A DNA stretch of 33,232 nt from Candidatus Bathyarchaeum sp. Its GTDB lineage: Archaea; Thermoproteota; Bathyarchaeia; Bathyarchaeales; Bathyarchaeaceae. The translations under genes and the position numbers were made by a program. The stretch is from NCBI GenBank assembly GCA_026014495.1, contig JAOZIF010000017.1, forward strand, positions 1 to 33,232. The letters are read 5' to 3'. Positions 13,694-14,690 of this stretch are shown piece after piece; the stretch's first letter is position 1; every line of letters begins with the position of its first letter. Below the pieces are notes generated by a model. It was not told where the DNA came from. It saw only the letters and a program-made list of their open reading frames with translations, and did not search any database.

Positions 13694-14570
13694 CCTCAGT
13701 TACACCAGCAGCCTCAGCAATATCCTTCTGGGTCTTCTTCTCGTTCTTCAAAAGACAAGCAATATACAACGCAGCCGCAGCCAACCCCATAGGATCTTTA
13801 CCAGCAGCTGCACGTTTTCTTCTAGCCTCATGAAGAATGTTTATTGCATGACCTTGCGTTGGACCGGAAATTCCAGTTTTTTCAGCAATTTTAGAAACAT
13901 ACGTAAGAGGATTGGCAATTGGCATCTGAACGTTTAGTTCGCGCAGCAGCAGACGGTAACAGCGTGCCACATCTTTTTTGTCCACAAAACTTGCTTCAGC
14001 TATTTCTCTAAGAGTTCTGGGAGTCCCAGTTGTTCGGCAAGCAGCATACAATGAAGCAGCGGCTATGGCTGCGATTGATCTGCCCCTTACTAGTCCTTTG
14101 TCTAGGGCTTTTCGGTAGATGATTGCTGCTTTTTCTTTTACTGGACCTGGAATGTATGATTTGTCAGATAGGCGGTCAAGTTCTGCCATGGCTTGGGCAA
14201 GGTTTCGGTCCACTGAGGAGTGAACTCGTGATCTTATTTGCCATTTTCTTAGTCTCCACATTTGAAGTCTTGTGGATAGGGGAAGTTTCCGTCCAAAGGC
14301 ATCACGGTCTACACGTCCGATGGCTGTGGATAATCCTTTGTCGTGAACAGAATATGATGTGGGTACTCCAACACGGCTTCTTGATGCCTTTTCTTCTTGG
14401 GTAAAGGCTCGCCATTCTGGTCCTTTGTCCATCATTTGTTCCCTGACAACTAGACCGCAGCCTCCGCAAATAGTCTCTCCAGTGTCGTAATCGTGGATTA
14501 GATTAGGACTTCCACATTCTGGACATTTTTCATTTGTTCTACGTGAAATTCCTTCTTTATTTTGCGTGAT
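13632..14570 (-). CDS. tfb: transcription initiation factor IIB (TFB); start codon unresolved
   Basis: GPEWRAF B-reader and two cyclin repeats (GRSI...[34 protein letters not shown]). The Zn ribbon KCPECGS...ICGGCG is in frame upstream of the first ATG (14435). 14570 is an inferred ATC start. Confidence 0.93.
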   Translation of the reverse strand: [312 protein letters not shown]

Positions 14571-14690
14571 GCTTTCGCCTCTAAAGTTTTCTGGCGAGAA
14601 TTCAGTGCTAACGTGAATCGTCTTCCCTTGTTAAGGCTCAGAAACCGTCCTTTCTGGACCCGCCGTAGTAACCCTGAGGCTATGTCTTGA

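Follow-up and report, generated by a model that had tools for sequence, protein, structure and literature searches.

The TFB reading frame

The window analysed here is a stretch of 33,232 nucleotides (contig JAOZIF010000017.1, positions 1 to 33,232 of the forward strand) from Candidatus Bathyarchaeum sp., represented by a metagenome-assembled genome (MAG) of 196 contigs that is 93% complete (GCA_026014495.1). The minus strand of the window carries a gene for the basal transcription factor TFB, the frame of which ends with a stop codon at 13634-13632 and is open back to an in-frame TAA (14631..14633). In a 312-aa reading of this frame, a TFIIB-type zinc ribbon (Zn_Ribbon_TF, Pfam PF08271, E = 2.5e-18; 14403..14528) occupies residues 15-56 and is followed by two C-terminal cyclin-like TFIIB repeats (PF00382, two stretches, E = 1.2e-40). 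The zinc ribbon begins at TGT 14525, and no ATG, GTG or TTG occurs from there up to the TAA. The first canonical in-frame codon is an ATG (14433..14435) that is downstream of the zinc ribbon, and a start at this codon deletes the ribbon. A preliminary description of the window had recognized the ribbon as an in-frame segment ahead of the first ATG, with no canonical codon between it and the TAA, and had proposed a non-canonical start for this TFB. The former is borne out by the frame and the list of open reading frames (ORFs), the latter by the canonical-start-free frame that is shared among relatives. Three full-length TFB genes occur in the genome, along with one weak partial match, and both paralogs of the gene described here have ordinary ATG starts. 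The gene in the window is the intact, principal TFB of this Candidatus Bathyarchaeum species.

Orthologs of this TFB were found in 30 of 30 relatives searched and at 80 further public loci, including the complete genome of Ca. Bathyarchaeum tardum M17C-01, and protein identity across the genus is 95-98%. The stretch from a conserved ACG codon to the zinc ribbon is free of ATG, GTG and TTG in 14 of the 19 Bathyarchaeum orthologs and in 2 of the 4 from the sister group. A state shared so widely is therefore due neither to chance nor to error, and, judging from these orthologs, the canonical-start-free TFB is inherited and no lesion. Some ortholog frames hold a canonical codon farther upstream, within the 5' leader, and gene callers pick those codons.

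A conserved ACG codon behind the Shine-Dalgarno site

Upstream of the zinc ribbon, on the minus strand, is a Shine-Dalgarno site, GAGGCGA (14575..14581), that matches GAGGTGA at 6/7 positions and is recognized both in the ortholog alignment and by comparison to the 16S rRNA 3' end of congeners. The 16S rRNA is unassembled in GCA_026014495.1, and the anti-Shine-Dalgarno sequence was taken from two congeners with the 3' end GGATCACCTCCT. The GAGG core is retained in nearly all orthologs of the ACG clade; in one sister-group ortholog (locus L050) it is GAGGG, aligned one base along. The distance from GAGGCGA to an in-frame ACG (14565..14567) is 7 nt in the window and 6-7 nt across the orthologs, and the distance preferred between Shine-Dalgarno site and start in this genome is 4-7 nt.

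This ACG is the likeliest start codon when the in-frame codons upstream of the conserved CPEC motif are aligned across orthologs (19 from Bathyarchaeum and four from the sister group). ACG is kept in 17/19 Bathyarchaeum orthologs and in 3/4 of the sister group (L049-L051), i.e., in 20 of the 23 rows of its clade, and ATG, GTG or TTG stands at the same position in all 14 of the 14 outgroup rows. The outgroup codon aligned with ACG is ATG (L052, L055, L059 and L063), GTG (L053, L057 and L102) or TTG (L104, L106 and L107), and this canonical start is followed by the same Q-K-K-E tail. The homology extends to annotated proteins: the database protein P0012, from a canonical-start lineage, has MQKKE at its N-terminus, matching the T-QKKE of the ACG lineages, and the proteins called in ACG lineages begin at spurious upstream codons and read ...GKTTQKKE... 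through this position. In L015/L040 and in L050, a TAA two codons upstream of the ACG leaves no canonical start, and in L051 the ACG is the only plausible near-cognate codon.

Synonymous sites of TFB are saturated among the 19 congeners, with a single codon in 6 of 260 conserved degenerate columns. The codons of the zinc ribbon are nonetheless kept at the protein level and, therefore, the ribbon is translated. Saturation extends to threonine, as 0/16 conserved Thr columns of TFB keep one codon across the genus, and ACG is the rarest Thr codon (10.7%); thus, the invariance of this ACG reflects a constraint at the nucleotide level.

In a maximum-likelihood tree of the coding sequences, the ACG-bearing rows fall in one clade of 23 (SH-aLRT, an approximate likelihood-ratio support value, of 89), with one gain of ACG and one reversal to ATG (L052). 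There were three separate origins of an ATG downstream of the ACG, one each in the B. tardum clade, L016 and L043. Decay of the ACG, to ACA, is limited to a pair of B. tardum-clade species, both of which have an ATG six codons downstream. Decay of the ACG beside a new ATG is what would be expected if ACG were a start made dispensable by the nearby canonical codon.

Near-cognate start candidates in unlinked genes

The genome was scanned for strong Shine-Dalgarno sites followed at 4-8 nt by a long frame headed by a non-canonical codon and with no canonical start nearby, and several candidates are shared with relatives. In dnaG (contig C85, 9645-10784, minus strand; locus L116/L124), GAGGTGA is followed after 6 nt by an ACG that is present in 18 of the 18 congeners with the region assembled; most outgroups have ATG or TTG at this position and two have ACG. 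The orc1/cdc6 gene (C63, 13019-14254, minus strand; locus L117/L154) has GAGGAGA and, after 8 nt, a CTG that is found in 13 congeners, with ATG in two congeners and in the outgroups. Two further cases, eL39 and rpoK, were compared independently of the scan. The gene for ribosomal protein eL39 (C169, 4564-4716, minus strand) has ACG at the Met position and a TAA two codons upstream. Among the 19 genomes of the genus, that of the window included, eL39 has ACG in eight, ATG in ten and GTG in one, and the outgroups have ATG, TTG or ATA. In rpoK (Rpo6; C153, 568-819, minus strand), ACG is at the start position with stops just upstream; it is shared by most congeners (five read ATA ACA) and by most families of the order, and in many relatives a stop lies one to five codons upstream of it (loci L195-L255 for both eL39 and rpoK).

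Other candidates were detected in the scan of this genome only, namely corA (GGGGGTGC, 6 nt, ACG; C16, 10499-11596, minus strand), a thiF-like gene (GGGGTGA, 6 nt, ATA; C175, 34327-35394, minus strand) and hsp20 (AGGAGGTGA, 6 nt, CTG; C56, 22025-22621, plus strand). Further candidate starts behind Shine-Dalgarno sites are the ATA of a GDSL lipase gene (C175, 3171-3842, minus strand), the ACG of a membrane protein gene (C80, 5037-5603, plus strand) and the ATT or AAG of an ornithine cyclodeaminase-like gene (C186, 22568-23569, minus strand). The Pfam domain begins before the first canonical codon in the thiF-like gene, and at or before it in the cyclodeaminase-like gene and corA. By its sequence the thiF-like gene probably has an ATA start.

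The codons seen (ACG, CTG, ATA and ATT) are all single-base variants of ATG, and no convincing case of an AAG or AGG start turned up in the genome scan. Eukaryotic initiation machinery of the eIF2 type likewise tolerates ACG, CUG, AUA and AUU best, rather than AAG or AGG. The initiator tRNA has the normal CAU anticodon, and the incomplete MAG, in which 27 tRNAs were detected, yielded no initiator-like tRNA with CGU, CAG or another anticodon. A dicodon scan for coding potential upstream of first canonical starts placed 30 genes above 99% of the null, compared to four expected, although the null is lenient, at least one match is false (PNP_UDP_1) and TFB itself was missed. The scan is an indication of scale only and suggests that tens of genes have near-cognate starts.

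Some further features of these genes and of start codon use were observed. The TGA of the dnaG GAGGTGA is an in-frame stop, and congeners show unusually little nucleotide variation over the 5' part of the dnaG coding sequence. The rpoK gene directly follows the TAG of a thermosome gene. TTG is apparently a very common start behind Shine-Dalgarno sites genome-wide (237 TTG vs. 375 ATG and 114 GTG in a crude count).

Proposed initiation at ACG and alternative readings

The preferred reading, given a probability of about 0.58, is that TFB starts at the ACG, as one example of a lineage-wide habit of initiating at near-cognate codons preceded by strong Shine-Dalgarno sites. TFB mRNA would be made from a strong promoter with a B recognition element (BRE) and TATA box and would extend via a conserved leader of ~100 nt to GAGGCGA, where the 30S subunit would be anchored. 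From the anatomy of the site, its positional homology, its conservation and the breadth of near-cognate starts in the genome, we infer that initiator Met-tRNA decodes the near-cognate ACG (14567-65) with one mismatch at the middle position. The coding sequence read from ACG has 311 codons plus the stop (13632..14567, minus strand), and the product would be a protein of ~311 aa with a complete zinc ribbon. In evolutionary terms, a single replacement of an ancestral ATG, GTG or TTG by ACG would have occurred in the ancestor of Bathyarchaeum and its sister group, and ACG would have been retained since. The persistence of ACG despite a one-step route back to ATG suggests that a weak start is tolerated or favoured, and the ACG of the ribosomal protein gene eL39 suggests that an ACG start is not very weak in this lineage.

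Several points weigh against this reading. Initiation at ACG is deduced from comparative sequence, and the interval between the ACG and a downstream ATT is short and A-rich with a weak coding signature (one in-frame 3-nt indel and some third-position variation). The start codons of NCBI table 11 are not known to include ACG. The aIF1 of Sulfolobus is reported to reject AUU in vitro (PMC4705826, PMC6237735). The main start could instead be the ATT, and the ATC that lies 4 nt after the Shine-Dalgarno site in the window might serve as a minor site.

The best-placed alternative, although a doubtful one, is that the ATT (14547..14549, minus strand; 305 codons) is the true start and that the conserved ACGCAA is an untranslated part of the initiation region. 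ATT is a second constrained in-frame near-cognate codon: it is found in 15 of the 15 Bathyarchaeum orthologs that do not have ATG there, the other four have ATG, and ATC or ATA never occurs, whereas 0/15 conserved Ile columns elsewhere in TFB keep one codon. The replacement of ATT by ATG in these four species represents two independent gains, and AUU is the classic near-cognate start of bacteria (infC). However, the only conserved Shine-Dalgarno site is 24-27 nt away from the ATT, and none is dedicated to the ATT itself. The sister-group orthologs L050 and L051 keep the ACG but have ACC and GTC at the ATT position and no other start, and the ATT position is unconstrained in outgroups that have ATG, GTG or TTG in place of the ACG. 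ACG is ranked first and ATT second, because ATT is not universal in the ACG lineages and is without its own Shine-Dalgarno site. The two starts are not exclusive, and the ATT may be an additional start under selection.

C-to-U editing of the mRNA is a much less probable source of the start codon. By this mechanism the ACG of TFB, dnaG, rpoK, eL39 and corA would yield AUG, and the CUG of orc1 and hsp20 would yield UUG. The genomic pattern is of the kind that editing leaves, in that ACG is found where relatives have ATG and the two alternate at the same position in TFB, eL39, dnaG and rpoK; in addition, a ribosomal protein gene (eL39) that tolerates ACG would be unexpected if ACG were a very weak start. 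Plant organelles provide the closest likeness, as their ACG starts edited to AUG also lie exactly where relatives have ATG and flip in state between species. The ATA and ATT candidates of Bathyarchaeum do not fit this system, since candidate starts such as those of the thiF-like gene, the GDSL lipase gene and the eL39 of L224 are not made canonical by C-to-U conversion. No shared motif was seen around the ACG sites by eye, with no formal search made. Editing of mRNA is not known in archaea, and neither editing machinery nor cDNA support is known for archaeal mRNAs. If editing did occur, start codons would be made after transcription in Bathyarchaeia, and this would be mRNA editing in an archaeon.

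Initiation at the ATC (14568..14570, minus strand), tied to the adjacent aIF1 gene in a stringency feedback specific to TFB, was put forward in the preliminary description and is now very improbable. The landmarks on which the proposal was built are present as given (GAGGCGA at 14581-75, ATC at 14570-68, an out-of-frame ATG-AAAAA-TGT at 14533, and GGTGA-AAAA-ATG at 7313-7304), and the distance of 4 nt from GAGGCGA to ATC in the window is a spacing used elsewhere. Related genomes do have a conserved non-ATG codon after the ribosome-binding site, but that codon is ACG. ATC or ATT occupies the ATC position in only 6 of 19 congeners, and the codons that congeners have there are GAA, GTC, CAA, GTT, GAT, GCA, AAT, ACT, GCC or ATT.

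The coupling to aIF1 fares similarly. The aIF1 (SUI1) gene is on the plus strand (13058..13375; likely start ATG 13067), convergent with TFB, and a small zinc-ribbon ORF (13397..13693, plus strand) lies between the two, overlaps the 3' end of TFB and is co-conserved with aIF1 in 94 loci. The ORF list agrees with the earlier statement that sui1 is ~260 bp from the 3' end of tfb; a specific link of aIF1 to TFB does not hold, as the convergent order of TFB, small zinc-ribbon gene and aIF1 is found by tblastn in 94 of 108 Bathyarchaeia loci whatever the TFB start, including all lineages with a canonical one (ATG, GTG or TTG). Moreover, a separate BRE/TATA for aIF1 precedes a conserved TTGAGTATCATG by ~21 nt (window 13000-13070, plus strand), which suggests that the aIF1 mRNA is leaderless or has a very short leader with a canonical ATG. 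Judged by this synteny, the aIF1-TFB neighbourhood is real but old, regardless of the start codon. The situation also differs from infC-type autoregulation, as TFB is no initiation factor, aIF1 is a syntenic neighbour irrespective of the start codon, and near-cognate starts are on unlinked genes. Because these genes include dnaG, orc1, rpoK, eL39 and corA, near-cognate starts are, as read from the genomes, a habit of the lineage and not a TFB-specific feedback loop of aIF1. Control through start-codon stringency may still operate, but it would be genome-wide.

A start at ATG 14435, to yield a TFB without zinc ribbon from a gene in which the upstream ribbon is a relic, is scarcely credible: this ATG is the first canonical codon and would be called by finders limited to ATG, GTG and TTG, but it has no Shine-Dalgarno site ahead of it, and the ribbon is retained at the protein level despite saturated synonymous change across the genus. 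An indel introduced into the A5 run by assembly has a negligible probability, as does programmed -1 frameshifting from ATG 14533; one extra A does turn ATG-AAAAA-TGT into a MKKCPEC reading, but ~20 independent assemblies of Candidatus Bathyarchaeum and the sister group (two of 1 or 7 contigs) share the canonical-start-free frame, and the out-of-frame ATG, on which the -1 shift and upstream ORF of the preliminary description both depend, needs AAT before GAA and is missing in 12/19 congeners, with ACN or AAC in its place in most orthologs. Comparison of the orthologs thus rules out an assembly error or frameshift at the A5 run, and a conserved out-of-frame ATG with slippery run, as expected of programmed frameshifting, was not found in the congeners.

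Promoter and 5' leader of TFB

A BRE/TATA-like promoter, AAAATCGTAACGCTTATATA (14691..14710, minus strand), is conserved in most orthologs, at a distance of ~160-175 nt upstream from the CPEC codons. With the usual spacing of archaeal promoters, transcription would start near 14664-14669, leaving a 5' leader of ~100 nt (14568..14668, minus strand). Alignments across Bathyarchaeia reveal that the leader is conserved among TFB orthologs whatever the start codon, in blocks that include ACGGCGGG, CC(A/G)GATGG, TTTCTGA, GATGA(A/G)GAA, GTGACGGTT and CTCGCC. The leader is single-copy, with no further copies in the genome.

A search of the window and leader against Rfam gave no match to the leader and only two tRNAs elsewhere in the window, RNAalifold found no consensus pairs in 29 leaders, and the fold of the window leader compared to shuffles has a z-score of -0.03. 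Two helices proposed by hand are 71.5% paired compared to a shuffled mean of 70.7% (95 of 500 shuffles are as high), and their covariation is weak. In many lineages the leader includes CUGA followed after 4-13 nt by UGAUGA, an arrangement similar to a kink-turn or C/D box that is degenerate in Bathyarchaeum. A role of the leader as a methylation guide was considered and rejected, as no complement of at least 10 nt is present in the 16S or 23S rRNA of genome G005. The leader may be the seat of regulation specific to TFB.

Relation to known initiation systems

The bacterial infC gene, which starts at AUU, resembles the TFB of Bathyarchaeum in that a core expression gene has a conserved start with a single mismatch to AUG, no canonical alternative is available, and a Shine-Dalgarno site positions the ribosome. 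By contrast, the product of infC (IF3) itself judges the start codon and so forms a feedback, while TFB is a transcription factor and aIF1 a separate, convergent gene; the codon of TFB is ACG (and ATT), and the initiation apparatus is archaeal and eukaryote-like. Near-cognate initiation in eukaryotes (e.g., at ACG and CUG, including the ACG of adeno-associated virus VP2, with a stringency that depends on eIF1) shares with Bathyarchaeum the codons ACG, CUG, AUA and AUU. Archaea have aIF1, aIF1A and aIF2 in common with the eukaryotic machinery (PMC4705826, PMC6237735). The eukaryotic system differs in that the ribosome is placed by scanning and Kozak context, whereas in Bathyarchaeum placement is by Shine-Dalgarno site, and the near-cognate codon of TFB is apparently the sole start of an essential protein, rather than the start of an N-terminal extension or an upstream ORF.

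Archaeal starts are given in reviews as AUG, GUG and UUG (PMC4705826, PMC6237735). Initiation led by a Shine-Dalgarno site and frequent non-AUG starts are common to these described systems and to Bathyarchaeum. The literature open to search includes no report of an archaeal gene with a conserved ACG or CUG start, and near-cognate candidate sites in ribosome profiling of Haloferax are merely mentioned and then set aside (PMC7261190). In an abundant sediment lineage, TFB, rpoK, eL39, dnaG and orc1/cdc6 have ACG or CTG at the exact ancestral start position, conserved beyond synonymous saturation. If these codons are decoded directly, start choice by aIF1 and aIF2 would be looser and more eukaryote-like than assumed, and near-cognate starts could set the levels of master regulators in a very slow-growing organism. 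That the weak starts of TFB, RpoK, Orc1, DnaG and a ribosomal protein form a set that follows aIF1/aIF2 activity would be new, and is rather unlikely.

Annotation is also affected. Gene finders truncate proteins with such starts or extend them through their leaders, with consequences for marker-gene sets and for the annotation of Bathyarchaeia MAGs. The database entries for the TFB described here read MKNHNSDGFLATKSPRGKTTQKKE..., and over-extended calls rather than truncated ones were found in a protein search. The claim is testable, since the dnaG, orc1 and rpoK cases are all present in Bathyarchaeum tardum M17C, a relative available in culture.

Other genes with atypical 5' or internal structure

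A HisRS-like gene (C143, 72-1361, plus strand) has a conserved N-terminus without a canonical start. Its Shine-Dalgarno site is a perfect AGGAGG, with TTC at the working distance, an ATG one frame off, and no near-cognate codon at the working distance; a frameshift, an assembly error and an unusual start are the candidate explanations. The cbf5 gene (TruB_N and PUA domains; C93, 69-974, minus strand) looks interrupted, with GHGGTL followed by ~20 nt that include a stop and then by ...NPKVTGILP. This interruption resembles the small mRNA intron in the cbf5 of some Crenarchaeota.

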